NCBI GenBank assembly: GCA_016187035.1
Contig: JACPKL010000001.1
Span: forward strand, 14,607 to 78,606
DNA: 64,000 bases
Reading direction: 5' to 3'
DNA from: Candidatus Daviesbacteria bacterium
GTDB lineage: Bacteria; Patescibacteriota; Microgenomatia; Daviesbacterales; UBA10151
Shown here: piece by piece, positions 3,915 through 63,504 of the stretch
Layout of the letters: every line of letters begins with the position of its first letter
Numbering within the stretch: the first letter of the stretch is position 1
Position numbers and translations under genes: made by a program
Notes under the pieces: model-generated
The model's input: the letters and a program-made list of their open reading frames with translations, nothing else
Database searches by the model: none
Told to the model about the DNA's origin: nothing

Positions 3915-4515
3915 CGCTTACACTCTCAAATTGATAATAAAATTGACCAACAGCCCGAAAATTCTGGGGTATATTTAAAGCTACCATTATATCAACTGCT
4001 TCTTTTATCTTCTCTGCAGTATCTTTGCTGATTACTGAAACAGCTAAAATTATTGTTCTAACCTGGTGCTTTTTTAGGTAATTTACAGCAGCCAAGGTTG
4101 TTGACCCTGTAGCAATTCCATCATCAGCAAGAATAACTGTTTTCCCTATCAGTTTAATTGGTTTCCTGCCCACTCTATAAACCTGTTCCCTTCTTTTTAC
4201 CTCTATTAATTCTTCTTCTATCTTTTCTCTTAAATCACCAATCTTAAATCTTAAATCTTTTAATAATTTTGTCTCCCATACAACCTCCCCGTCAGTATCC
4301 ACTGCTCCTAAAGCCAGTTCAGGCTGGTTAGGCGCTCCAATTTTTCTGGTTACAATAATATCCAAAGGCAGATTTAATTCTTTAGCTATTTCTGCTGCTA
4401 CCACTACCCCACCTCTGGGAATTCCTAACACTACTCCTCCCTGAAGCCCCCGAATTCCCCTAAGTCTCTTTGCAAGTAATATCCCGGCAGATCTCCGGTC
4501 TTTAAATAGCTTCAT
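3877..4515 (-). CDS. Phosphoribosyltransferase-family protein
   Basis: PRPP-binding motif VILADDGIATGSTTLAAV, plus GIPRGGVVVA. Contains a heptamer tract encoding DLRFKIGDLREK. Confidence 0.7.
   Translation of the reverse strand: MKLFKDRRSAGILLAKRLRGIRGLQGGVVLGIPRGGVVVAAEIAKELNLPLDIIVTRKIGAPNQPELALGAVDTDGEVVWETKLLKDLRFKIGDLREKIEEELIEVKRREQVYRVGRKPIKLIGKTVILADDGIATGSTTLAAVNYLKKHQVRTIILAVSVISKDTAEKIKEAVDIMVALNIPQNFRAVGQFYYQFESVSDEEVVQLLHHER
4229..4259. repeat. Heptamer tract CTTAAAT (in the PRTase gene)
   Basis: The 19-mer ATCTTAAATCTTAAATCTT is identical at 54283-54301 in the SucC-like gene. Both encode DLRFKI. Confidence 0.8.
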
Positions 4516-7872: not shown

Positions 7873-8178
7873 ATGGCCGAATCTTCAGAAGGGAAATCCC
7901 CAATTATTCCTCCTATGCCAGAGATTTTAGATATTGAAAAGTTAAGTATCTGGATGAAGGATCATACAATAAGAGCTCCAAAAGGATATGCAGATATGAA
8001 ACGCCAAGATGGTACCCCCTTTAGTTTAGATGAGCAAATTGATGCTCATATAAAACAAACAGTAGACATTATTAACTTCAAGAGACAAAGAAATGATCCA
8101 AGAGAAACTTATCAAGAAATAGAACAAGGTATACTACGTTTTACTCAACCTGATGATCCTACCTCAAAAGGTAAGTAG
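7873..8178 (+). CDS. Hypothetical protein (101 aa)
   Basis: ORF only, no recognisable motif. Its 3' end converges on and overlaps the fic gene by 20 nt. Confidence 0.35.
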   Translation: MAESSEGKSPIIPPMPEILDIEKLSIWMKDHTIRAPKGYADMKRQDGTPFSLDEQIDAHIKQTVDIINFKRQRNDPRETYQEIEQGILRFTQPDDPTSKGK

Positions 8179-9235
8179 CTTTTTTGGTGCCGCCGATTTT
8201 TTTTATCAAGCCTTTTTTCCTTAAAAATTGTAACTCTCTTAAAACTGTATCATCTGAAAAATCAGGGAAGATCTTCCTGAAGTCTTTATTCTGCATGCTC
8301 TTATGACGATGGAGATATTCCATTATTATCATCTGCCTTTCATTTAATATGACCTGCTCCCCTAGTTTATCTTTAATCCTGGCATCAACAGAAATCCTTT
8401 GCACTTTTTCTTTAACCCTGTTTAACTCAATAGCAACACCTTCTGTAAAATATTCCAGCCAGGGAGTTAAATCCCTTTCATGAGTATCCAAAACCAACTG
8501 GTTAGATACTGCCTGCAAAGTTAAATAATACTTCATCGGATTTTCATCAAAATACTCCTCAAATGAGAAAAACTTTTTTATATCATATCCATCTAAAAAC
8601 ATTACTAAAGTAGCCACAGCCCTGGCTATTCTGCCATTCCCATCAACAAACGGATGAACTCTGGCTATTTCATAATGGATAATACCTGCTTTTAAGATGG
8701 GGTGGACTTGTTTCGCTTCATCAGAGTTGATCCAATTAACTAAATCTTCTATTAAATAAGGCACTTCCACTGCCGGAGGCGGTGTATAGGAAATTTGTCC
8801 TGTCTGGGAATTTTTAATAACCACTTGTCTGATTCTAAATTTCCCTGAAGACTGCTCTGGTAATATTTTCTCTGTAGTAAGCTTATGTATTTCTAAGATT
8901 GTTTCCAGGGTGAAGTTATATATACCAATTGAGCCTATTTGTACCTGAATAGACTCAACAAATCTTAAAACATTTCTATAATTAATGACTTCCTGAACAT
9001 CCCTGTCTCTGGCAACCACCTCAGTGCCTGCTAAAACATCCTGGACCTCTTCTTCAGATAAGGCATTGCCCTCAAGATGAGTGCCATGATGGATCGTTCT
9101 TTCAATAGCCTCTTTTCTGAATTTAGCTTCCCAGGCAGGCACCAAAGGAGCATGAATTATGACCTCTTTTGCAGCTTCTACAATACCTATGTCTTTTAAA
9201 ATCTTGTTGGTGATAGAATATTTGGGAACAAACAT
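8159..9235 (-). CDS. Fic/DOC-family protein (putative AMPylase) with C-terminal wHTH
   Basis: Fic motif HPFVDGNGRIARA, N-terminal Fic_N-like THLEGNALSEEEV, and a C-terminal winged-helix-like segment. Confidence 0.85.
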   Translation of the reverse strand: MFVPKYSITNKILKDIGIVEAAKEVIIHAPLVPAWEAKFRKEAIERTIHHGTHLEGNALSEEEVQDVLAGTEVVARDRDVQEVINYRNVLRFVESIQVQIGSIGIYNFTLETILEIHKLTTEKILPEQSSGKFRIRQVVIKNSQTGQISYTPPPAVEVPYLIEDLVNWINSDEAKQVHPILKAGIIHYEIARVHPFVDGNGRIARAVATLVMFLDGYDIKKFFSFEEYFDENPMKYYLTLQAVSNQLVLDTHERDLTPWLEYFTEGVAIELNRVKEKVQRISVDARIKDKLGEQVILNERQMIIMEYLHRHKSMQNKDFRKIFPDFSDDTVLRELQFLRKKGLIKKIGGTKKATYLLR

Positions 9236-9282
9236 ACCATTTCATTATCTCTCATTTCCCGCAAAAAAGCTATCTATATGCG

Positions 9283-9303
9283 TACCAATTTATTGTACGA
9301 TCG
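9283..9303. repeat. 21-bp direct repeat copy 1 (TACCAATTTATTGTACGATCG), upstream of fic
   Basis: Identical 21-mer at 9818-9838. Lies 3 nt after the PaaX-like stop and ~47 nt upstream of the fic ATG. Carries a TACAAT -10-like hexamer on the minus strand. Confidence 0.8.
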
Positions 9304-9305
9304 CA

Positions 9306-9818
9306 TCACAAAATGGTATTAATGGTATTAGCAGTTAAACGATTGACTTCCATTACCACCACCCACTTCTCTATTCCCAAATCTTTAATATATAATTCCA
9401 ATTTATCAAAAACGTTTCTTTTGCTCACCCAAACACTTTTTTGTAAATGCTTAAAACCCCATTTTTTAAGATTTCTTCTAAATAAGTTTCTGATAATTCT
9501 TTTTTGTTCTGGAATATCAAATATTACTATCCTCCACTTTCCATCCCAATCTTTCTCTTCATAATTATCACTGATTAATTCCTTTCCAGCTTGAGTCAGT
9601 TTTATTATTACATCATCCTTGACTTTTGTCTGTTCAATCAACCCCCCTTCCCTTAGTCTTCTTAACGCTTGGGATAAAGAGGATTTCCTAAGCTCAGGGA
9701 TTCCGTATCTGTAACGGTAATGATGATAGGTAAAATCTTCTAAACGAACATAACCATCCACTGTTTTTTCCAATACCAGAAGAATCTTATTTGTCAAACT
9801 CTTTTTATAAACCCTCAT
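9306..9818 (-). CDS. Small PaaX-like regulator (N-terminal wHTH plus Cas2-like/PaaX middle domain)
   Basis: WDGKWRIVIFDIPEQKRIIRNLFRRNLKKWGFKHLQKSVWVS matches the PaaX/Cas2-fold pattern. N-terminal wHTH (LSQALRRLREGGLIE). Paralog at 25795-26310. Confidence 0.6.
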   Translation of the reverse strand: MRVYKKSLTNKILLVLEKTVDGYVRLEDFTYHHYRYRYGIPELRKSSLSQALRRLREGGLIEQTKVKDDVIIKLTQAGKELISDNYEEKDWDGKWRIVIFDIPEQKRIIRNLFRRNLKKWGFKHLQKSVWVSKRNVFDKLELYIKDLGIEKWVVVMEVNRLTANTINTIL

Positions 9819-9842
9819 ACCAATTTATTGTACGATCGTACA
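9818..9842 (-). promoter_or_regulatory. Candidate promoter/operator of the PaaX-like gene: 21-bp repeat copy 2 plus the perfect 14-bp palindrome TGTACGATCGTACA
   Basis: Minus strand reads TTGACA-N16/17-TACAAT-aaattggt-ATG. The palindrome (9829-9842) overlaps the spacer and -10 hexamer. The ATG is 8 nt after the -10, suggesting a leaderless mRNA. Confidence 0.5.
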
Positions 9843-9956
9843 CCGAATTGTCAATAGTAGTAATTAAATATAATAATAAGACTTATGAAATAAAGTCGGG
9901 GGGAAAAGCCTGCAGACTATCTTTAATCAAATCCTCCCCACTTTCAAATTCCTTCC

Positions 9957-25705: not shown

Positions 25706-25794
25706 ATGATTTTAGCAGGTTTTACCTTGGCGGGCTAAGGAGACTTTTTTACTTCGAGTCTTATATTCTCGTCCTATACTTATACACGATCGTA

Positions 25795-26310
25795 TTATTG
25801 TATGTCCAGAGGACCATACTTTTCAGATTCAAAAACCCATACCCACTTCTCCACTCCTAAATCTCTAATATAATTGAATAATTTATCAGTAACGTTCTTT
25901 TTGGAAATCCAGACACTTTTTTGAAAATGTTTAAAACCCCATTTTTTTAAATTCCTTCTAAAAAGATCTCTTATCAACCTCTTTTGTTCTGGTATATCAA
26001 AAATCACTATTCTCCATTTTCCATCCCAACTTGCTGTACCATCACCAGTCAGCAATATCACTGTCTTACCTTCATCTGTCAATTTCAAAACCACTTGACC
26101 GATATCTTTCTTGTCAGTTTCTATCAGACCCTTCTCTTTTAACCTGGCAATAGCCTTAGATAAAGCAGATTTCTTCAGCTCAGGAATCCCATATCTGTAG
26201 CGATAATGATGGTAGGTAAAATCTTCTAAACGTACATAACCATCAATACTTTTTTCTAAAAAAGTCAAAAGGCTATAACTCAAACTTCCTCTTCTAACCT
26301 CCATACCCAT
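25795..26310 (-). CDS. Small PaaX-like regulator, paralog 2
   Basis: WDGKWRIVIFDIPEQKRLIRDLFRRNLKKWGFKHFQKSVWIS. Long identical blocks with 9306-9818 (YVRLEDFTYHHYRYRYGIPEL). Sits directly upstream of the ABC pair. Confidence 0.6.
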   Translation of the reverse strand: MGMEVRRGSLSYSLLTFLEKSIDGYVRLEDFTYHHYRYRYGIPELKKSALSKAIARLKEKGLIETDKKDIGQVVLKLTDEGKTVILLTGDGTASWDGKWRIVIFDIPEQKRLIRDLFRRNLKKWGFKHFQKSVWISKKNVTDKLFNYIRDLGVEKWVWVFESEKYGPLDIQ

Positions 26311-26364
26311 AACAATAACCGATCGTTTAATAGTATGTCAACCCCGACTGAGTCGGGGTCAAGA

Positions 26365-27225
26365 TTATATACTAAATATTGATAAAAGGACTATACCTAT
26401 TAAGGTAGTTACTACCCCTACGACTTGCTGCTTGGTGATAGGATCTTTAAATATAAGAAATGCCAGAAAGACAAACAAAGTAACTGAAGATGAAGCAATA
26501 GGGGCTACCAGAGAAACCAAACCCTCACTAATGGCTAAATTATAACTAATCCCCCCTATGTTAATTAGCAATGCAGCTAACAAAAGAGGGATAAATACTC
26601 TTTTGTCTGGTTTTATCAATTTGATTCTCTTTACCTGCATTACTATCAGGATGATAGGGAAAGATAACCAGGTGAGATATCCTGGCCAAAACCAACCAAT
26701 CTGCTTAATTGGTATTTTGATAAAAGTAAAATATACTCCCCATAAAAGCATAGCGACGATGGCATAGGGTATTCCCCGATCGAGTAAAATATTTTTATTT
26801 TTTAACTGCCTCAAATTTAAACTGCTTAGGATTATCCCTAAAAATATTATTGAGATAAAAATTGACTGACCAAGTGAAATCTTCTCCCCTAAAAAAATTA
26901 TTGATAATAAAACTGTAACCAAAGCAAACGAAGAAGCAATAGTCCCGACTACAGCAGCATTTCCTACCCGCAATCCTTCATAAAAAGCCACCAAAGGTAT
27001 TGGGCCCAAAAATGTGAGTATAATAATTATTATTAAAGACTCCAGAGTAAATTTATTCAAATCTGCAAGTGCAAAAGGAATGTAAAAACTAGATAATATC
27101 AATCCTATTACAGATAGATATAAACTAAAGCTATATCCCCCGATTTTCCTAGAAGTTTGCGCACCCAAAATATCCCCAATTCCCCAACCTAAATATGATA
27201 TAAATGCAAAAATTATAGCTAACAT
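26365..27225 (-). CDS. EamA/DMT-family transporter
   Basis: 286 aa with ~10 TM helices in two EamA-like halves. Confidence 0.75.
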   Translation of the reverse strand: MLAIIFAFISYLGWGIGDILGAQTSRKIGGYSFSLYLSVIGLILSSFYIPFALADLNKFTLESLIIIIILTFLGPIPLVAFYEGLRVGNAAVVGTIASSFALVTVLLSIIFLGEKISLGQSIFISIIFLGIILSSLNLRQLKNKNILLDRGIPYAIVAMLLWGVYFTFIKIPIKQIGWFWPGYLTWLSFPIILIVMQVKRIKLIKPDKRVFIPLLLAALLINIGGISYNLAISEGLVSLVAPIASSSVTLFVFLAFLIFKDPITKQQVVGVVTTLIGIVLLSIFSI

Positions 27226-28220
27226 TAGGAAGGCTTTGCTTGGCGGGCTAAGGAGACTTTTTTACTTCTTTCCAAGAAGGCTTGTTGGGCAAGCTTTACA
27301 TTTTCTTCTTTACCTGCCCAGGCAGTCAAAGCCTCATCCTGCAAGGCCCTGCCATAAGAGTAGGAAAGCTGCCAGGGACTACCTTCTATCAGATTTATTT
27401 CATATAAATTTGTGGTTGCTTCATCAGGTGATTGCCCCCCAGACAAAAAGACAATACCTGGCATTGGGGATGGAACTACCTTTTTAAATGTTTCCACTGT
27501 AGCTTTAGCTATCTCTTTTGCAGACGCTTGAGTTGGGCATTTTTTGCCTGAGATAACCATATTTGGTTTTAAAATCATCCCTTCTAAAATTACTTTATGG
27601 GCAGCTAGTCTTTCAAAAACAGCTTTTAAGGTTTTTTCTGTTACATCCTGGCAGACTGCCAAAGTATTATCAGCATCCATCAATACTTCAGGCTCTACAA
27701 TTGGCACTATATCAGCCTCCTGGCAAAGGCTAGCATATCTGGCTAAACTTTCAGCATTAGCCCATATACAAGTATCTGAAGGTATCCCCTCTACTATGGT
27801 AATCACCGCTCTCCATTTGGCAAACCTTGCTCCCATCTCTTTATACTCAGTCAATCTGTCTCTTAACTCATCCAACCCTTCAGTTACCTTTTCTCCGGGA
27901 AAATTAGCCAGTTTCCAGGCACCTTTATCTACCTTAATTCCAGGGATTATCCCTTTGCTTTCTAAAAACTGAGGTACAGGAGTTCCGTCTATACTTTGTC
28001 TGATGGTTTCATCATATAAAATCACTCCAGAAATATAGTCTGCTATACCTGAAGTGGTAAAAAGCATTGTTCTGTAGGCTAAATTAGTCTCTGGAGTAGA
28101 AGTTAAACCAATTTTGTCAAATCTTTTTTGAATGGTTTTTGAAGATTCATCTGCAGCTAAGATCCCTTTTCCAAGAGCCACCATAACCCGAGCTGTTTGT
28201 TTTAAGACATTTATATCCAT
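27225..28220 (-). CDS. fba: Fructose-bisphosphate aldolase, class I
   Basis: GILAADESSKTIQKRF and the Schiff-base lysine context MILKPNMV. Eukaryote-like class I length. Confidence 0.85.
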   Translation of the reverse strand: MDINVLKQTARVMVALGKGILAADESSKTIQKRFDKIGLTSTPETNLAYRTMLFTTSGIADYISGVILYDETIRQSIDGTPVPQFLESKGIIPGIKVDKGAWKLANFPGEKVTEGLDELRDRLTEYKEMGARFAKWRAVITIVEGIPSDTCIWANAESLARYASLCQEADIVPIVEPEVLMDADNTLAVCQDVTEKTLKAVFERLAAHKVILEGMILKPNMVISGKKCPTQASAKEIAKATVETFKKVVPSPMPGIVFLSGGQSPDEATTNLYEINLIEGSPWQLSYSYGRALQDEALTAWAGKEENVKLAQQAFLERSKKVSLARQAKPS

Positions 28221-33034: not shown

Positions 33035-34192
33035 TTAATACTCAGTCAAGTCCTCTAAATTTTTCTCCACCAATTCTAAAATTTCTTTTTTAAATCTAAC
33101 TTTTCCAAACTTCTCAGCGTTTTTGCGGCAGTCTTCGGTTTTGATACGATGATTCGTATCATCAAAGCGTTTAAGGACTTCTATTAAACTGTCCACAGAA
33201 ATTTGTCCTGGACAACCATATAATAATCCTGTTTTTCCATCTATGACTGTTTCTAAAAAGCCCCCGCTAAGCGGGGCTATGACCGGAGTTCCACAAACCT
33301 GGGCTTCTATTGAAGTAATCCCAAAATCCTCATCTTCTGAGGCCACAATTAAAGCCTGAGCATTAGACAGTAACTCTACTCTATCCTGATCAGATACCCA
33401 ACCCAGGAAAGTAGTTGGTAGTTGGTAGTTGGTAGCAAGCTTTTTTAGATTTTTTAATTCAGGACCAGATCCTGCTACTTTGAGTGGTAAACCTAATCTA
33501 CCACAAGCTTCTACCACTACCTCTACTCCCTTTCCCCTGACTAATCTACTCAGCACTAAATAATAAAATTTTGAATTTTGATTTGTATTTTTGATTTTTG
33601 AATTTTGAATTTTGAATTCTGCAAGATCCACTGGTGGGTAAATTACCACACTATCCCTTCTGTAAAATTTCTTGATCCGCTCTTGAACATTCTTAGAATT
33701 AGCAATTAAAATATCCGGTCTTTGGGAGGTCTCAAAATCATAAATTCTTAGAATATGATTAGCTAACTCCCCTAAAATTCTAGTAATAAAGTTTTTTTTA
33801 TAATTAAAAGAAGTCACATAACCATATAAAAACCTGGGCGGGGTATGAATGTAGCTTAAATGGAGCGTCTCGGGTTTAGTAATAACGGCTTTGGCAAAAT
33901 ATATGGCAGATGAAGAAATGACCAAATCATATTCAGATAAATCAAAACTTTCAAACATTAAACAAGCAAATACTCTGCAAGGAGACAACAGCTTATTGGC
34001 AAAAGGAAATTTTTGAAACCAGGAAGGCCTGATATCCCAATCCTTGAAACGCTTGCCATTCTCCCCCATTGCCTCCAAATTTACATAAGCAGTGTAGACA
34101 GGAGCATTAGGAAAGATTTCATGAAGGGCTTCTAAAACTCTTTCTGCTCCACCATATTCTCTTAAATAATCATGAGCTAATGCAACCTTCAT
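33035..34192 (-). CDS. Glycosyltransferase family 4 (GT-B fold)
   Basis: MKVALAHDYLREYGGAERV N-terminus and EDFGITSIEAQVCGTPVIA (EX7E region). Two in-frame heptamer tracts. Confidence 0.8.
   Translation of the reverse strand: MKVALAHDYLREYGGAERVLEALHEIFPNAPVYTAYVNLEAMGENGKRFKDWDIRPSWFQKFPFANKLLSPCRVFACLMFESFDLSEYDLVISSSAIYFAKAVITKPETLHLSYIHTPPRFLYGYVTSFNYKKNFITRILGELANHILRIYDFETSQRPDILIANSKNVQERIKKFYRRDSVVIYPPVDLAEFKIQNSKIKNTNQNSKFYYLVLSRLVRGKGVEVVVEACGRLGLPLKVAGSGPELKNLKKLATNYQLPTTFLGWVSDQDRVELLSNAQALIVASEDEDFGITSIEAQVCGTPVIAPLSGGFLETVIDGKTGLLYGCPGQISVDSLIEVLKRFDDTNHRIKTEDCRKNAEKFGKVRFKKEILELVEKNLEDLTEY
33411..33436. repeat. Heptamer tract GTAGTTG x3.7 (in GT4)
   Basis: GTAGTTGGTAGTTGGTAGTTGGTAGC encodes ATNYQLPTT. 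Confidence 0.85.
33567..33621. repeat. Heptamer tract AATTTTG/ATTTTTG, ~8 units (in GT4)
   Basis: AATTTTGAATTTTGATTTGTATTTTTGATTTTTGAATTTTGAATTTTGAATTCTG encodes FKIQNSKIKNTNQNSKF. The unit is the same as in the carA tract. Confidence 0.85.
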
Positions 34193-35001
34193 GCTGATTT
34201 TGCTACCTCAATCAACTGTTCAAATGATAATTTAGTAGGTTTACTATCTGGAGCTGATGATGAACCACAAATAACCATATGATGAGATTGGTGTAAAAAC
34301 CAGTCAGCCTTTGGATCTAACTCTTTGACTTTTTTGTATATAGCTTCTATATCTGCCTCAGGAGCAAAAAATTGAACTGCAGGATACTTTGGATTATACA
34401 TTAAAAACAGATCCCTGCCTTGCTCCCTGACAAATTCCCTGTCCACAGTTTCTGAAATAACTGCATAAGATTTGCCAAATTCAGACTCAAACTCCACTCT
34501 TTTCTCCCAGTCTAGCAAAGATTGTTCTTTTCTTTTTAATACTTTTAAAACCCTATCTAATATCTCTCTACCCAGCGCTACAGATTTTTGGGAAGTTTCA
34601 TTGGAATTAGCTTTGGTTCTGATAAAAGATTGAATACTAAACTCATCAAACTGGTTATTTGGAGCTTTACCTGTATCAATAAGTTTATTCCAGGAAACTA
34701 ACTTTTCTAAAGCCTTTTGGGTCAAACCAGAAGGTATAAATCCCTGCTCTTTTAAATATTCATAGACAAGGGACCCTGCGCAAGTGTCTAAACCTTCCTT
34801 ATGCTCATCAAATCTTCCTCCTCCTGTGCCTACAAATACTCTATCTGCTGTTTCCTGTCCTGCTTTGTCATGTGAGGCTGAAATGAACTCTACCTGGGCA
34901 TCTTTGAACTGCGGATGGAATTTTTTAAAAAGCCAGATCCCACAAATATCATCCAGGTGTGGATTAATGTGGGTAACCAAAACTTTTGCCATAGTTGTCA
35001 A
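34189..35001 (-). CDS. Conserved hypothetical protein; possibly an MYG1/UPF0160-like metal-dependent hydrolase
   Basis: VTHINPHLDDICGIWL ... GTGGGRFDEH loosely follows the MYG1 His/Asp pattern. The family assignment is tentative. Confidence 0.35.
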   Translation of the reverse strand: MTTMAKVLVTHINPHLDDICGIWLFKKFHPQFKDAQVEFISASHDKAGQETADRVFVGTGGGRFDEHKEGLDTCAGSLVYEYLKEQGFIPSGLTQKALEKLVSWNKLIDTGKAPNNQFDEFSIQSFIRTKANSNETSQKSVALGREILDRVLKVLKRKEQSLLDWEKRVEFESEFGKSYAVISETVDREFVREQGRDLFLMYNPKYPAVQFFAPEADIEAIYKKVKELDPKADWFLHQSHHMVICGSSSAPDSKPTKLSFEQLIEVAKSA

Positions 35002-35100
35002 AGTATAACATTCAAGAAGTTTCTCTACAATTTATTCCCATACATTTAAACGATCGTATTGTGTTATGTCTTTTTACATATACTATGATAAGATCATCAT

Positions 35101-35892
35101 ATGATTCTAGTTAAAAAGCTACTTTTTGCACCTTTATTTTTAATTACTTTTGCTTTATTAATTTCCCAGCTCTCCCCTATTTTTAAATCTTCTGATTTTA
35201 TCTTTTCTTTATCCATTAACAATCTTTTTCAGTTAATTATTATTTCCATCTTATTGAGTTTATCCTCTTTTTTATTTATTATATTTGCAACTTTGTCTTT
35301 TGACTTAAGACTAATCCTCCCGGTCAATTTACTAATCTCTGTCATTCCTATGTTTTTTTTAGATCAGGCTATTGGAGTAGTTTTAGCTGTGGCAGTGTTT
35401 ATAAGTTTGCTTGTTAGTTATCTTTCTTTGGAAAATACTCTAAAAACTTACTTGAATTTTCAACCAACTATCTTATTTGGTCCATCTTTCAGGCGTTTAT
35501 CCTCTTTTTTAATCTTAGTTATCTCTATCACATACTTTTTGGCAAGCAGCAGCATAATTGCTCAAAATGGTTTTCAAATTCCTGATTCTATAATAGATAC
35601 TACTCTAAAGTTTACTCCTCAATCTGAAACAACTACCAAAATTCCCCAAGAACTAGTTGATAATCTAATCAAACAAACTGTAAAAGATCAGATCCAATCA
35701 TTTATTAAACCTTATTTAAATTTTATTCCTGCAATTTTGGGATTACTGCTGTTTGTAACTTTCCAGTCTCTAACTTCCATTATCAATCTTTTGATATATC
35801 CCCTGCTTTGGATTACTTTTAATATTTTAGAAAAAACAGGGTACGTAAAATTTACAACTGAGATGAGGCCAGTTAAGAAGATGGTTATTTAA
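35101..35892 (+). CDS. Polytopic membrane protein, hypothetical
   Basis: 263 aa with several hydrophobic helices. Its last ~14 codons form the left copy of a ~42-bp direct repeat. Confidence 0.5.
   Translation: MILVKKLLFAPLFLITFALLISQLSPIFKSSDFIFSLSINNLFQLIIISILLSLSSFLFIIFATLSFDLRLILPVNLLISVIPMFFLDQAIGVVLAVAVFISLLVSYLSLENTLKTYLNFQPTILFGPSFRRLSSFLILVISITYFLASSSIIAQNGFQIPDSIIDTTLKFTPQSETTTKIPQELVDNLIKQTVKDQIQSFIKPYLNFIPAILGLLLFVTFQSLTSIINLLIYPLLWITFNILEKTGYVKFTTEMRPVKKMVI
35851..35892. repeat. Direct repeat, left copy (target duplication flanking the TA cassette)
   Basis: TTTACAACTGAGATGAGGCCAGTTAAGAAGATGGTTATTTAA versus 36490-36531 TTTATAACTTAGATGAGGCCAGTTAAAAAAATGGTTATTTAA (38/42 identical by my alignment). 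Confidence 0.85.
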
Positions 35893-53252: not shown

Positions 53253-54485
53253 TCACTTAACTCCATATGCTAACTCCACCATGATTTTTGCAGTTGAAGT
53301 CATTGGAGTCTCCCTGCCAAATATATGAAAATCAAACCCTTCCTTACGGCCTACTCTTTTTAGCTCCTCAAAAGCTTCCTGATCCCTTGGCCCGCCTCTT
53401 CTTATCACAATTGGGTAAGCAGGCTTTGGTTTAATTTCCCTAAGCCCTTCTACAAAGCCCATTAAAGTTTCATAAATATCAGTAAAATTGGCTGTGCCTC
53501 CCACAAACCAACAACCCTTAAGTCCTGGTTTTCCTAGAACAATTTTAGTTAATTTTTTCAATTTTTCTCTGGGAGGGTTGCCTGAGTGTTCAGTATAATT
53601 AGCCGCCCTTCCTCCAAAAGTTACTAAAGCATCCATGTTAACTATAGACCCTCCACCTCCTGCAGCAATGACTGCAATGTCTCCATCCCGAAGGTCCCAA
53701 TAAACAGAGCCTGCAGTACCTCTGTGATCTCCTTCATCTATTTTTCTGGCTTCAATTTCAGCCTCAGTTGGGGGTCTGCCAAACAAATTTCTTTGGGGAA
53801 ATTTAATTTCCCTTCTAAAGTCTGCATCATCGTCCAAGATAACTTTGGCATCTAAAGCATAGACTCTCTTGTCATTGCGAGGTCCGCCCTGGCGGACCGT
53901 GGCAATCTTTCCATTTGAGATGGAAGATTCCTCGCTTATGCTCGGAATGACAGAAGTGGTAGAAACTACCAAAGGATTTATTTCTGCCAGTTCTAAGTCA
54001 TATTTTGTGAATACCTCCCAAAGCTCTGTAATAGTATCTGTAAATTGGACATAATGTTCAACGATCGTTGAAGGTAACGTCATATTTAGAGGATCAACAG
54101 GAAAACTCTCTGCGCCTTTTTCCTCTACTCCTGTCCCACCTTTGCCAAAAGTTAACACAGGTCCTCTTGTTGCTGTGGAGTATGAGAAAGACAGATAATA
54201 CTCCTTACCAACATCAACCATTTGTTCAACTAAAACCTTCTCCACCTTCTCATTGTTAATTGTCTTTGAAAGTAATTCTTCAATCTTAAATCTTAAATCT
54301 TCCATCTTCTCTACCACCAAAATCCCCCCAGCTTGTGCTCTTTTTCCAGACAAAACTTGAGCTTTCAAAACCAAAGGAAGTTTTAAGGTTACTTCCTGAT
54401 CTGCAGATTCTAAGAGTTGTGACTGGGGAACATTAATCCCACAACTTTTAAAAAGTTGTTTGCCTTCAAATTCGAAGAGTTGCAT
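53253..54485 (-). CDS. Succinyl-CoA synthetase beta-subunit / ATP-citrate-lyase beta-like ATP-grasp protein
   Basis: N-terminal ATP-grasp (MQLFEFEGKQLFKSCGI). C-terminal ligase-CoA-like IAAGGGGSIVNMDALVTFGGRAANYTEHSGNP. Carries an 81-bp family-A element in-frame between the halves. Confidence 0.75.
   Translation of the reverse strand: MQLFEFEGKQLFKSCGINVPQSQLLESADQEVTLKLPLVLKAQVLSGKRAQAGGILVVEKMEDLRFKIEELLSKTINNEKVEKVLVEQMVDVGKEYYLSFSYSTATRGPVLTFGKGGTGVEEKGAESFPVDPLNMTLPSTIVEHYVQFTDTITELWEVFTKYDLELAEINPLVVSTTSVIPSISEESSISNGKIATVRQGGPRNDKRVYALDAKVILDDDADFRREIKFPQRNLFGRPPTEAEIEARKIDEGDHRGTAGSVYWDLRDGDIAVIAAGGGGSIVNMDALVTFGGRAANYTEHSGNPPREKLKKLTKIVLGKPGLKGCWFVGGTANFTDIYETLMGFVEGLREIKPKPAYPIVIRRGGPRDQEAFEELKRVGRKEGFDFHIFGRETPMTSTAKIMVELAYGVK
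53871..53951. repeat. Palindromic element family A, 81 bp, in-frame in the SucC-like gene
   Basis: GTCATTGCGAG-GTCCGCCCTGGCGGAC-CGTGGCAATCTTTCCATTTGAGATGGAAGATTCCTC-GCTTATG-CTCGGAATGAC. Translated as SVIPSISEESSISNGKIATVRQGGPRNDK. Confidence 0.9.
54285..54301. repeat. Heptamer tract CTTAAAT x2.4 (in the SucC-like gene)
   Basis: See 4229-4259. Confidence 0.8.
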
Positions 54486-63414: not shown

Positions 63415-63415
63415 G

Positions 63416-63487
63416 TGGGCGGACCAGGATTTGAACCTGGAACCAAATCTGTATAAGAGATTTGCTCTACCGTTGAGCTATCCGCCC
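63416..63487 (-). tRNA. tRNA-Ile with anticodon UAU (reads AUA)
   Basis: Own fold of the reverse complement: GGGCGGA-TA-GCTC-AACGGTA-GAGC-A-AATCT-CTTATAC-AGATT-TGGTT-CCAGG-TTCAAAT-CCTGG-TCCGCCC-A. All stems are Watson-Crick paired. No encoded CCA. Confidence 0.85.
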
Positions 63488-63504
63488 GATCGGTAGTCAT
63501 TATA

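Follow-up and report, generated by a model that had tools for sequence, protein, structure and literature searches.

A 21-nucleotide sequence found at both ends of a small regulator gene is probably part of a palindromic operator of approximately 36 bp, which is present twice and brackets the gene of its own binding protein. The stretch of DNA analysed here, referred to as the window, is 64 kb long, and the two operator copies, O1 and O2, lie in it at the start and at the stop codon of the gene for a 170-aa protein, P1. The sites and their positions are read directly from the sequence, and their conservation and a covariation between protein and DNA come from the comparison with related loci. 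Because of this covariation P1 very likely binds the palindrome, at O1 as well as at O2, and represses itself. An earlier sequence-only reading had described an autoregulated PaaX-like repressor that would also control a Fic enzyme; the autoregulation gains from the covariation, whereas the control of fic looks weak.

The regulator gene and its palindromes

The regulator P1 (9306..9818, minus strand) was characterized by profiles, an AF2 model and fold matching. It is composed of an N-terminal winged helix and a C-terminal Cas2-like domain and lacks the C-terminal domain of PaaX; such proteins are here called mini-PaaX. The PaaX-like identity proposed from the sequence was borne out by the match to Pfam family PaaX_M (PF20803; 78.9 bits, E 3e-22, cut-off 24) and by a fold search, in which E. 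coli PaaX (8a39) was the best match and many winged-helix regulators appeared as well. PaaX was reached in this way and not through the sequence search of solved structures with P1 and its profile, which returned only weak MarR-type winged-helix matches. The HxlR and MarR profiles matched P1 below their cut-offs, and the Cas2 profile PF09827 did so just above (26.1 bits, cut-off 23.8), over residues 95-133 only. In the structure model, which is of a monomer only and of moderate confidence (pLDDT 70), residues 8-74 form three helices and a beta-hairpin wing, and the Cas2-like part has a beta-alpha-beta-alpha-beta arrangement. No effector domain or signal is apparent for mini-PaaX.

The 21-mer TACCAATTTATTGTACGATCG occurs exactly twice in the window, at 9283-9303 and at 9818-9838. 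No further match with up to three mismatches was found there and none in 100 shuffles, and the duplication reported by the sequence-only reading was thus exact in both positions, with no copy expected. Equally correct were the perfect palindrome TGTACGATCGTACA that extends the upper copy (9829-9842) and the 47-nt gap between the lower copy and the fic ATG (9235); that the regulator and fic genes are both on the minus strand had been missed. The lower 21-mer starts 2 nt past the regulator stop codon. The repeat is longer than 21 nt, comprising approximately 45 nt at 76% identity with a spacing of 535 bp, and each 21-mer represents the core and the right arm of an imperfect palindrome of approximately 36 bp. 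The predicted operator O1, TGACAATTCGGTGTA-CGATCG-TACAATAAATTGGTA, is located at 9818..9853 (minus strand), and the predicted second copy O2, TACCATTTTGTGATG-CGATCG-TACAATAAATTGGTA, at 9283..9318 on the same strand. O2 overlaps the end of the regulator gene, its left arm being the final four codons and the stop codon TGA (9308-9306). Neither the longer repeat nor the 36-bp palindromes nor this overlap figured in the sequence-only reading.

O1 covers the predicted regulator promoter, and its end is the A of the regulator ATG. This sigma-70-type promoter (9827..9854, minus strand) is the best promoter-like site in the region with 11 of 12 matches; it consists of TTGACA (9854-9849) as the -35 box, a spacer of 16 nt and TACAAT (9832-9827) as the -10 box, which is 8 nt from the ATG (9818-9816), a leaderless geometry. 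The promoter claimed in the sequence-only reading is therefore confirmed, with a spacer of 16. As the long palindrome lies over both boxes of the regulator's own promoter, P1 on O1 would occlude RNA polymerase, resulting in negative autoregulation.

CGATCG is the top over-represented palindromic hexamer of the window, where a count against expectation gave nine copies versus 1.0-1.6 expected; five of the nine are in an operator-like context. Some of them belong to a paralogue, P2 (25795..26304, minus strand), which is 66% identical to P1 and matches PaaX_M with 82.2 bits. Its ATG is at 26304, and the listed ORF begins two codons earlier, at 26310. P2 repeats the layout of P1 with different operator arms: P2 O1, TGACATACTATTAAA-CGATCG-GTTATTGTTATGGGT (26305..26340, minus strand), is directly before the ATG, and P2 O2, GGACATACAATAATA-CGATCG-TGTATAAGTATAGGA (25772..25807, minus strand), overlaps the stop codon TAA (25797-25795). 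A third P2-type site (35036..35071) has the same base as the P2 operators at 22 of 30 arm positions and is found in the intergenic DNA that separates the divergent ORFs 34189..34992 (minus strand) and 35101..35892 (plus strand). The related motifs announced near P2 and in this divergent region are indeed present, but their coordinates were slightly shifted and 26320-26325 reads AACGATCGG instead of ACGATCGTA. ACGATCGT is located at 25786-25793, 35050-35057 and 54061-54068, the last copy being intragenic and absent from the earlier description. P2 has an EamA transporter gene on one side and ABC transporter genes downstream. The EamA-P2 block lies between the copies of another direct repeat, of 30 nt, which hints at a past insertion.

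Paired sites in related loci and residue 127

The mini-PaaX family comprises at least 4031 clusters at 50% identity, with several paralogues per genome of approximately 1 Mb. Of 60 loci, all have a palindrome centred on CG[AG][TC]CG upstream of the start and 55 have one at the stop codon, against a background of 80 other such cores in 416 kb. A narrow search (this core, 90 nt upstream and 80 nt downstream) undercounts the sites, and a wider and then a core-free search were used. With a pair counted as cognate when at least 20 of 36 positions are identical, the core-free search found O1/O2 pairs at both gene ends in 128 of the 153 evaluable loci versus 9 of 153 in the control; the ORFs of these loci were called mechanically, with possible local errors. 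The arms of O1 and O2 agree at 19.6 of 30 positions when taken from one locus and at 12.3 of 30 when taken from different loci (permutation p < 1e-4), the cores are concordant within loci, and the palindromic symmetry of the arms extends to 18.4 of 30 positions versus 7.9 for random 36-mers. The pair is kept across several candidate phyla, down to protein identities of approximately 30%. Genes downstream of the family members belong to diverse families, and no shared function was found among them.

The centre of the operator co-varies with a single residue of the protein, K127 (codon 9438..9440, minus strand), which is found in the motif LQ-K-SVW at the start of beta2 of the Cas2-like domain. 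In 76 loci a K or R at this position is accompanied by AT at the operator centre, in 17 a Q by GC, and no locus is discordant (Fisher p 6e-19); approximately nine independent switches are placed on the tree. E is linked, in five of five loci, to the hybrid core CGACCG. Among all residue-by-position pairs this one ranks first, explaining 0.80 of the base entropy (runner-up 0.53). The core switches are seen between proteins that are 73-90% identical, and O1 and O2 switch together. From this covariation we infer that residue 127 contacts the operator centre. E. coli PaaX lacks the QKSVW motif and has Pro aligned with K127, so the rule is not checkable on the known operators of PaaX. Between arm positions and winged-helix residues, no covarying pair rose above phylogenetic noise.

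Most likely, mini-PaaX would bind its operator as a symmetric dimer or a higher oligomer. In such a complex the arms, whose consensus in the P1 orthologue group is TACCAWTT ... AWTGGTA with inner GTA/TAC, would be recognised by the winged helices and the dyad centre by the Cas2-like domain; there, K127 may be paired with the central A-T pairs of CGATCG.

Direct repeats around one small gene with an arm-core-arm structure also resemble recombination sites, and O1 and O2 could be the ends of a mobile or recombining cassette (a target duplication, Xer/dif- or integron-like sites) or a dispersed repeat with no regulatory role. The occurrence of several paralogues per genome beside unrelated genes and the 30-nt direct repeat around the EamA-P2 block would fit with this. 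We nevertheless regard it as very improbable. Only two P1-type copies are present in 64 kb; the arms vary among paralogues, which would be incompatible with recognition by one host recombinase; and the core changes along with a residue of the gene's own product, in which no recombinase or HUH motifs were found. Moreover, O1 lies on a near-consensus promoter at a fixed distance from the ATG, and the order carB - P1 - fic is stable in 11 genomes.

The stop-codon copy and the fic gene

In 70 of 128 loci the footprint of O2 is on the stop codon and in 102 of 128 it is no more than 10 nt away, the distance varying between subfamilies. It occurs irrespective of the downstream gene, which may encode a sortase, ComEC, a Mur ligase or enolase, or be convergent. 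The next gene is convergent in 25 of 113 loci, and in 30 none starts within 200 nt. A general role of O2 as promoter-operator of the next gene was ruled out, since a co-directional ORF starts within 25 nt of it in only 12 of 113 loci. In approximately 10% of the loci the geometry of O2 and the downstream gene equals that of O1 and the regulator, and O2 may there be the operator of that gene.

By analogy with lacI O3, O2 most likely acts as a roadblock or as a loop partner. Protein on O2 would stop RNA polymerases that got past O1, giving regulator transcripts without a stop codon as at lacI O3, and the roadblock would insulate the downstream DNA, which in the window is fic. The O2-bound protein perhaps also loops to O1, 535 bp away. 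As the O1-O2 spacings show no signal of helical phasing (Rayleigh R ~0.08), looping is unsupported by the spacing; loops of approximately 540 bp tolerate phase, which makes the phasing test uninformative at that length.

It could also be that O2 is bound by the regulator without having a role of its own, as a decoy or a relic of promoter duplication. O2 is dispensable in two orthologous loci, L003 and L010, where its absence has no visible compensation, and its distance to the stop codon differs among subfamilies. Such a passive site seems improbable, however, given that O2 is kept in approximately 84% of more than 150 loci from several candidate phyla, while the neighbouring non-coding DNA is unalignable even between close orthologues. 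Every core switch in O1 is matched by O2, which requires continued selection on binding.

Any palindrome can fold, and O2 would be transcribed at the 3' end of a coding region, where the minimum-energy fold of the P1 O2 region is a hairpin. The proposal that O2 is an RNA-level 3' hairpin (a terminator or stabiliser of the regulator transcript) and resembles O1 only incidentally has nonetheless a next to negligible chance of being correct. The P1 hairpin is weak (-9.9 kcal/mol, z -1.5), the P2 O2 palindrome is missing from the best fold, and past O2 there is no T-run and the terminator scan is negative. O1, with the same sequence, is upstream of the predicted transcript start, and the would-be loop, at the palindrome centre, has the highest conservation and varies together with a residue of the protein. 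An RNA-level reading of the palindromes in general was ruled out by folds with z of -0.5 to -1.5 and the lack of a match to an Rfam family.

The fic gene (8159..9235, minus strand) encodes a 358-aa protein, which was assigned on motifs, a profile and an alignment with FICD. The active-site motif HPFVDGNGRIAR at residue 194 fits HxFx(D/E)GNGRxxR, and the motif GTHLEGN at residue 51 aligns with TVAIEGN of human FICD, which contains the inhibitory Glu. The protein shares this combination of an active site and a same-chain N-terminal inhibitory Glu with the class II Fic proteins, such as human FICD/HYPE and Shewanella SoFic, and its winged-helix-like C-terminal region with SoFic-type proteins; unlike in FICD and SoFic, its inhibitory motif begins with Gly and not with Ser/Thr. 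By these motifs Fic is a class II, self-inhibited enzyme, and therefore no separate antitoxin is expected. Indeed, no separate small (S/T)xxxE(G/N) protein is found beside fic, and the 170-aa protein upstream does not have the motif. The atypical toxin module without a FicA-type antitoxin that had been suggested thus dissolves, the inhibitory motif being within Fic itself.

Directly upstream of fic there is a promoter-like element (9244..9272, minus strand), which consists of TAGCTT (-35-like), a 17-nt spacer with conserved TTTTGCGGGAAATG and GATAAT (-10-like) 8 nt before the fic ATG. It is conserved among orthologous loci, and TAGATTTTTTGCGGGAAATG...GAnnAT is found at this position in all 11 Daviesbacteria loci in which the regulator is followed by fic in synteny. 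The carB - P1 - fic neighbourhood of these genomes has protein identities of 70-84%.

This element bears on the idea of O2 as the operator of a fic promoter, with the regulator and Fic joined in a dedicated regulator-effector (toxin-like) module, an idea which we consider unlikely. O2 is between the two genes with a TACAAT 47 nt before the fic ATG, their order is kept in 11 loci, and no terminator separates them, which makes read-through into fic possible. On the other hand, O2 has no -35 of its own in the P1 orthologue group, where the -35 position is coding, and it ends 10 bp upstream of the -35-like box of fic and hence would not occlude it. L003 and L010 keep fic without O2, and in five genomes O2 and fic are separated by 0.4-1.3 kb carrying other genes, part of them in the opposite orientation. 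In most family members the stop-codon operator is next to unrelated or convergent genes, and a class II Fic with its Glu in cis is not a toxin that requires a partner. With its own element and an O2 that is separable from it in relatives, fic is poorly explained as a direct target, contrary to the earlier proposal. It rather appears as a conserved neighbour with its own promoter, affected at most indirectly, via read-through.

Implications and comparison with known systems

To our knowledge almost nothing is known about gene regulation in the bacteria of the candidate phyla radiation (CPR), which are uncultured. One of their expanded regulator families now has an operator that is defined, a two-site layout that is conserved and a residue predicted to set the specificity, all of which is amenable to experiments on purified protein and synthetic DNA, with no need for culture. 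More than 100 natural protein/operator pairs with two sites each constitute a data set for a recognition code. In addition to that, a widespread Cas2 mis-annotation is corrected, and an apparent orphan Fic toxin gives way to a class II enzyme that is predicted to inhibit itself and to have a promoter of its own.

It is conceivable, though we think it doubtful, that mini-PaaX is a self-contained, self-bracketing unit whose Cas2-like head is re-programmable by one residue and whose stop-codon operator serves as a protein-dependent terminator or insulator. If so, the code would be K/R for AT, Q for GC and E for the hybrid core, the regulator message would be cut before its stop codon with tmRNA-mediated feedback, and O2 would shield the neighbouring operons in compact, largely leaderless genomes with few intrinsic terminators. 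CPR proteins filed as Cas2 would then be a main family of local repressors and insulators, and the Cas2 fold would be capable of specific recognition of palindromic repeats.

In the Cas1-Cas2 complex, the bound DNA duplex is contacted at its middle by the Cas2 dimer. The C-terminal half of P1 resembles Cas2 in its match to PF09827 and in the retained motifs FDI...QxSVW, and NCBI and other public records often call mini-PaaX proteins "CRISPR-associated endonuclease Cas2", which is a mis-annotation. Unlike Cas2, the domain in P1 is fused to a winged helix, its gene is flanked by carB and fic with neither an adjoining cas1 nor a CRISPR-like array in the 64-kb window, and its DNA reading is presumably sequence-specific. 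The analysis suggests a capacity of the Cas2 fold to recognise DNA sequence. No literature was found that treats PaaX together with Cas2, Cas2-like domains or the CPR, and mini-PaaX proteins are outside the scope of a 2026 survey of paa pathways.

E. coli PaaX (PDB 8a39) is a phenylacetyl-CoA-responsive repressor. It binds the long-spaced palindrome TGATTC-N27-GAATCA and represses its own promoter (Px) via steric hindrance of RNA polymerase (PMC9493321). P1 is similar to it in having a winged helix followed by a Cas2-like domain, central in PaaX, and, as predicted at the sequence level only, a long palindromic operator over its own promoter. It is shorter, however (170 versus 316 aa), the chain stopping at residue 170 directly past the Cas2-like domain, and has no Pfam match to PaaX_C, the domain that is said to bind phenylacetyl-CoA. 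The alignment covers only the Cas2-like domain (residues 102-172 of E. coli PaaX) with 21% identity, and the FDIPE and QKSVW motifs of P1 are absent from E. coli PaaX. There are no paa genes near P1 or P2, and the neighbours of the family are diverse unrelated housekeeping genes. The mini-PaaX operator also differs in its conserved 6-bp palindromic centre and in the second copy at the regulator's own stop codon.

For this second copy the closest likeness is lacI O3, an operator of LacI that is located at the 3' end of lacI itself. LacI at O3 roadblocks transcription of lacI, which leads to a truncated, SsrA-tagged product, and O3 is able to loop to a second operator (PMC3711431). The main lac operator, however, controls the neighbouring operon, and the lacI promoter has no operator, whereas the mini-PaaX sites bracket the regulator gene with the upper one over its own promoter, and this two-site layout is conserved through the whole protein family.

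The repeat unit and the regulators that it brackets

The 21-mer TACCAATTTATTGTACGATCG occurs in the window in exactly two perfect copies (9283-9303 and 9818-9838), just as the sequence-only reading had it, one before the regulator gene and the other before fic, the gene 3' of it; no extra copies with up to three mismatches were found in the window, and 100 shuffles gave 0. With a repeat finder the duplication grows to 45 nt (76% identity; copies 535 bp apart), and each copy is itself palindromic. The true repeat unit is approximately 36 bp and has an arm-core-arm structure. The operator at the start of the regulator gene, O1, is TGACAATTCGGTGTA-CGATCG-TACAATAAATTGGTA (9853..9818, minus strand), and that at the stop end, O2, is TACCATTTTGTGATG-CGATCG-TACAATAAATTGGTA (9318..9283, minus strand), its left arm being the final four codons and the TGA stop of the gene. 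CGATCG is the top over-represented palindromic hexamer of the window (9 observed, 1.0-1.6 expected). In the operators of the orthologue group the core, TACAA (+4 to +8) and an outer-end TGGTA are conserved, three variable bases separating TACAA from the outer block, and the approximately 10-bp periodicity of conserved positions would fit DNA binding from one face.

The bracketed gene (9306..9818, minus strand) encodes a 170-aa protein, P1. In Pfam it hits PaaX_M, the 'Cas2-like central domain' (E 3e-22), and marginally the CRISPR_Cas2 profile, with winged-helix profiles staying below threshold. Its AlphaFold model, a monomer of moderate confidence (pLDDT 70), places a winged helix ahead of a beta-alpha-beta-alpha-beta domain, and the closest solved structure is Escherichia coli PaaX (8a39). 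Compared to the latter, P1 has no PaaX C-terminal domain and can be aligned over the Cas2-like part only (21% identity). Homologues are found in Candidatus Daviesbacteria and other Microgenomates and are often labelled 'CRISPR-associated endonuclease Cas2' in public records; a search for a CRISPR array in the window found none. P1 is a distant, truncated PaaX relative and not a Cas2.

The paralogue P2 (25795..26304, minus strand; 66% identity to P1; ABC transporter genes next) also has CGATCG-centred palindromes abutting its ATG (26340..26305, minus strand) and over its stop codon (25807..25772, minus strand), both with arms unlike those of P1. A third site, in a divergent intergenic region (35036-35071), matches the P2-type arms at 22/30 positions.

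Several other features were noted around P2 and CGATCG. A G+C-rich hairpin, CCCCGACTCAGTCGGGG (26341-26362, minus strand), just 5' of the P2 -35 and after an EamA gene, may be the terminator of the latter. Two identical direct copies of a 30-nt sequence, GAAGTAAAAAAGTCTCCTTAGCCCGCCAAG (25726-25755 and 27239-27268, minus strand), stand 1513 bp apart on either side of the EamA-transporter and P2 block. One of them forms the 3' terminus of ORF 27225..28220, and its partner lies 5' of an ABC ATPase gene; the pair looks like a duplication from insertion of the block. The perfect 16-bp palindrome TTCAACGATCGTTGAA (54054-54069), within an ATP-grasp/citrate-lyase-like gene (53253..54485), has a left flank, GGACATA, similar to P2-type arms; it may be either a weak site within the gene or a coincidence. 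One more CGATCG (63487-63492) stands directly at the 5' end of tRNA-Ile(TAT) (63415..63487, minus strand), with a TATAAT box 6 nt before it and no operator-like arms.

Paired operators across the family and residue K127

Clustering at 50% identity puts the family of these small regulators, here called mini-PaaX, at 4031 clusters for E ≤ 1e-3 and at 481 for E ≤ 1e-10. Related loci were sampled from species genomes (80) and from metagenomes (80), with ORFs called mechanically. Of the two window genes together with the 58 closest genome loci, 60/60 have a CG[AG][TC]CG-centred palindrome within 110 nt 5' of the start and 55/60 have one at -40 to +60 nt from the stop codon, against a background of 80 other such cores in 416 kb of the same DNA. 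In a core-free search, which sought the palindromic 36-mers most alike between the two gene ends, a cognate pair (≥20/36 identical) was present in 128 of 153 evaluable loci, and in 9 of the 153 when unrelated coding DNA served as the downstream region. The arms are palindromic at 18.4/30 positions (7.9 in random 36-mers) and share 19.6/30 positions within a locus vs. 12.3/30 between loci (permutation p < 1e-4), and the two cores agree within each locus. O1 and O2 are spaced by 505-840 bp (median 549), the O2 footprint lying over the stop codon in 70 of the 128 loci and within 10 nt of it in 102.

Some subfamilies have recurrent neighbourhoods. The mini-PaaX gene is located between comEA-like (HHH/SLBB) and comEC (Competence) genes in L015, L023 and L056. 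In L016, L026, L030, L036 and L042 it points away from a divergently transcribed GH1 glycosidase gene, and O1 lies within the 79-bp intergenic region common to both genes. Locus L038 carries a third operator copy (position 1590; 29/30 arm positions as in O1) 5' of a 221-aa gene preceding the regulator, and therefore this regulator probably controls that gene as well.

In three orthologous pairs with differing cores (CGATCG vs. CGGCCG) both operators had switched jointly. Five alignment columns split the core types in all three pairs, only one of them with the same change each time (K/R to Q); this column is K127 of P1, part of the motif LQ-K-SVW where beta2 of the Cas2-like domain begins. In a set of 118 non-identical loci, central AT (CGATCG, also CCATGG, CATATG, CTATAG and TGATCA) is accompanied by K or R, CGGCCG by Q and the hybrid core CGACCG by E (5/5 loci), the table of K/R vs. 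Q by AT vs. GC being 76, 0, 0, 17 (Fisher p 6e-19). On a simple neighbour-joining distance tree, parsimony counts approximately nine independent changes for each of the two characters, with 0 discordant tips. Some core switches separate proteins of 73-90% identity, such as L124 (K, GCGATCGC) and L125 (E, GCGACCGC), which are 90% identical. When every protein column was compared with every operator position, K127 with the operator centre was the clear maximum (0.80 of base entropy; next 0.53). The K127 codon (9440..9438, minus strand) is far from both sites, so overlap cannot account for the link. We conclude that the encoded protein would bind both O1 and O2, and infer that the dyad centre is read by the Cas2-like domain and the arms by the winged helices.

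The fic gene

The fic ORF (8159..9235, minus strand) encodes a 358-aa Fic enzyme with the motif HPFVDGNGRIAR. In an alignment with human FICD its GTHLEGN falls on the inhibitory TVAIEGN, which places the enzyme in class II, the self-inhibited kind of Fic, and the proposal of an atypical toxin-like module without a FicA-type antitoxin is not supported. The order carB, P1, fic is conserved in 11 Daviesbacteria loci, and in 11/11 of them (L001-L010, L013) fic is preceded by a conserved element of its own, TAGATTTTTTGCGGGAAATG with a GAnnAT box after it; in the window it is TAGCTT-N17-GATAAT (9244-9272, minus strand), 8 nt 5' of the ATG, with O2 ending 10 bp upstream of the -35-like hexamer. In L003 and L010 O2 is missing with fic and its element kept, and in L005-L009 O2 and the element are separated by 0.4-1.3 kb with further ORFs. 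Because of this own element, the O2 losses and the intervening ORFs, the suggestion that the regulator controls fic directly is not supported; read-through may modulate fic.

In 6 of the 11 loci an insert of approximately 100 nt, made of short tandem repeats and inverted copies, separates the element from the fic ATG; it has the potential for a long hairpin, differs in sequence per genome and holds an extra ORF in L005. The N-termini of Fic (MFVPKYSITNKIL, 9197-9235) and the regulator (MRVYKKSLTNKIL, 9780-9818, both minus strand) are alike at 9/13 residues, and AAAT(T)GGT precedes both ATGs; the N-terminal likeness may be chance (tblastn E 5.3).

Probable autoregulation and the stop-codon site

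The upstream copy of the 21-mer lies within TTGACA-N16-TACAAT (minus strand), the top promoter-like match of the region (11/12 positions), whose -10 is 8 nt from the ATG, in the leaderless-like arrangement read earlier from the sequence. O1 spans the spacer, -10 and start codon of this near-consensus promoter, and its left arm departs from the symmetric TACCAWTT precisely where TTGACA demands. E. coli PaaX, the operator of which is the long-spaced palindrome TGATTC-N27-GAATCA, hinders RNA polymerase at its own Px promoter and thereby represses itself (PMC9493321). Because O1 covers the promoter and this precedent exists, autorepression of P1 by promoter occlusion is the expected mechanism. The earlier proposal of an autoregulated PaaX-like repressor is thus strengthened by the palindrome on its own promoter and by the protein-operator covariation, repression itself being inferred. 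The leaderless geometry is not peculiar to P1: Shine-Dalgarno sequences are scarce among the window genes and numerous operon-first genes have a TAnnnT (-10-like) box 6-9 nt 5' of the start codon, an arrangement that points to leaderless mRNAs as the norm in this Daviesbacteria genome.

An autoregulated palindromic operator per se is ordinary. Our literature search found no description of family-wide bracketing of a gene by two cognate operators, of private arm specificities of paralogues, or of a single Cas2-like-domain residue tracking the operator centre through repeated switches. Every functional statement made here is drawn from sequence. With these results, a family of proteins from uncultured bacteria that was uncharacterised and mis-annotated becomes a directly testable protein-DNA recognition system.

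O2 as a general operator of the next gene was rejected: in the 113 loci with sufficient downstream sequence, a co-directional ORF is next in 58, only 12 of these starting within 25 nt of the O2 centre, a convergent gene is next in 25, and there is no ORF start within 200 nt in 30. The flanking gene families on both sides are unrelated (sortase, ComEC, Mur ligase, enolase, DprA, PBP2, GH1, tRNA synthetase). What stays constant is that O2 stands at the stop codon of the regulator itself. RNA fold and RNA-family searches make a role as an RNA hairpin improbable, and O1-O2 helical phasing gave no signal for looping, a weak test at such distance. The closest precedent is O3 of lacI, likewise a repressor site at the 3' end of the repressor's own gene, where LacI, once bound, acts as a roadblock to transcription of lacI; the product of the truncated message is SsrA-tagged, and a loop from O3 to O1 of lac also forms (PMC3711431). 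Given this precedent and the constant position, a role of O2 as a roadblock and/or in a loop is favoured; it would tighten autoregulation and would block read-through into downstream DNA.
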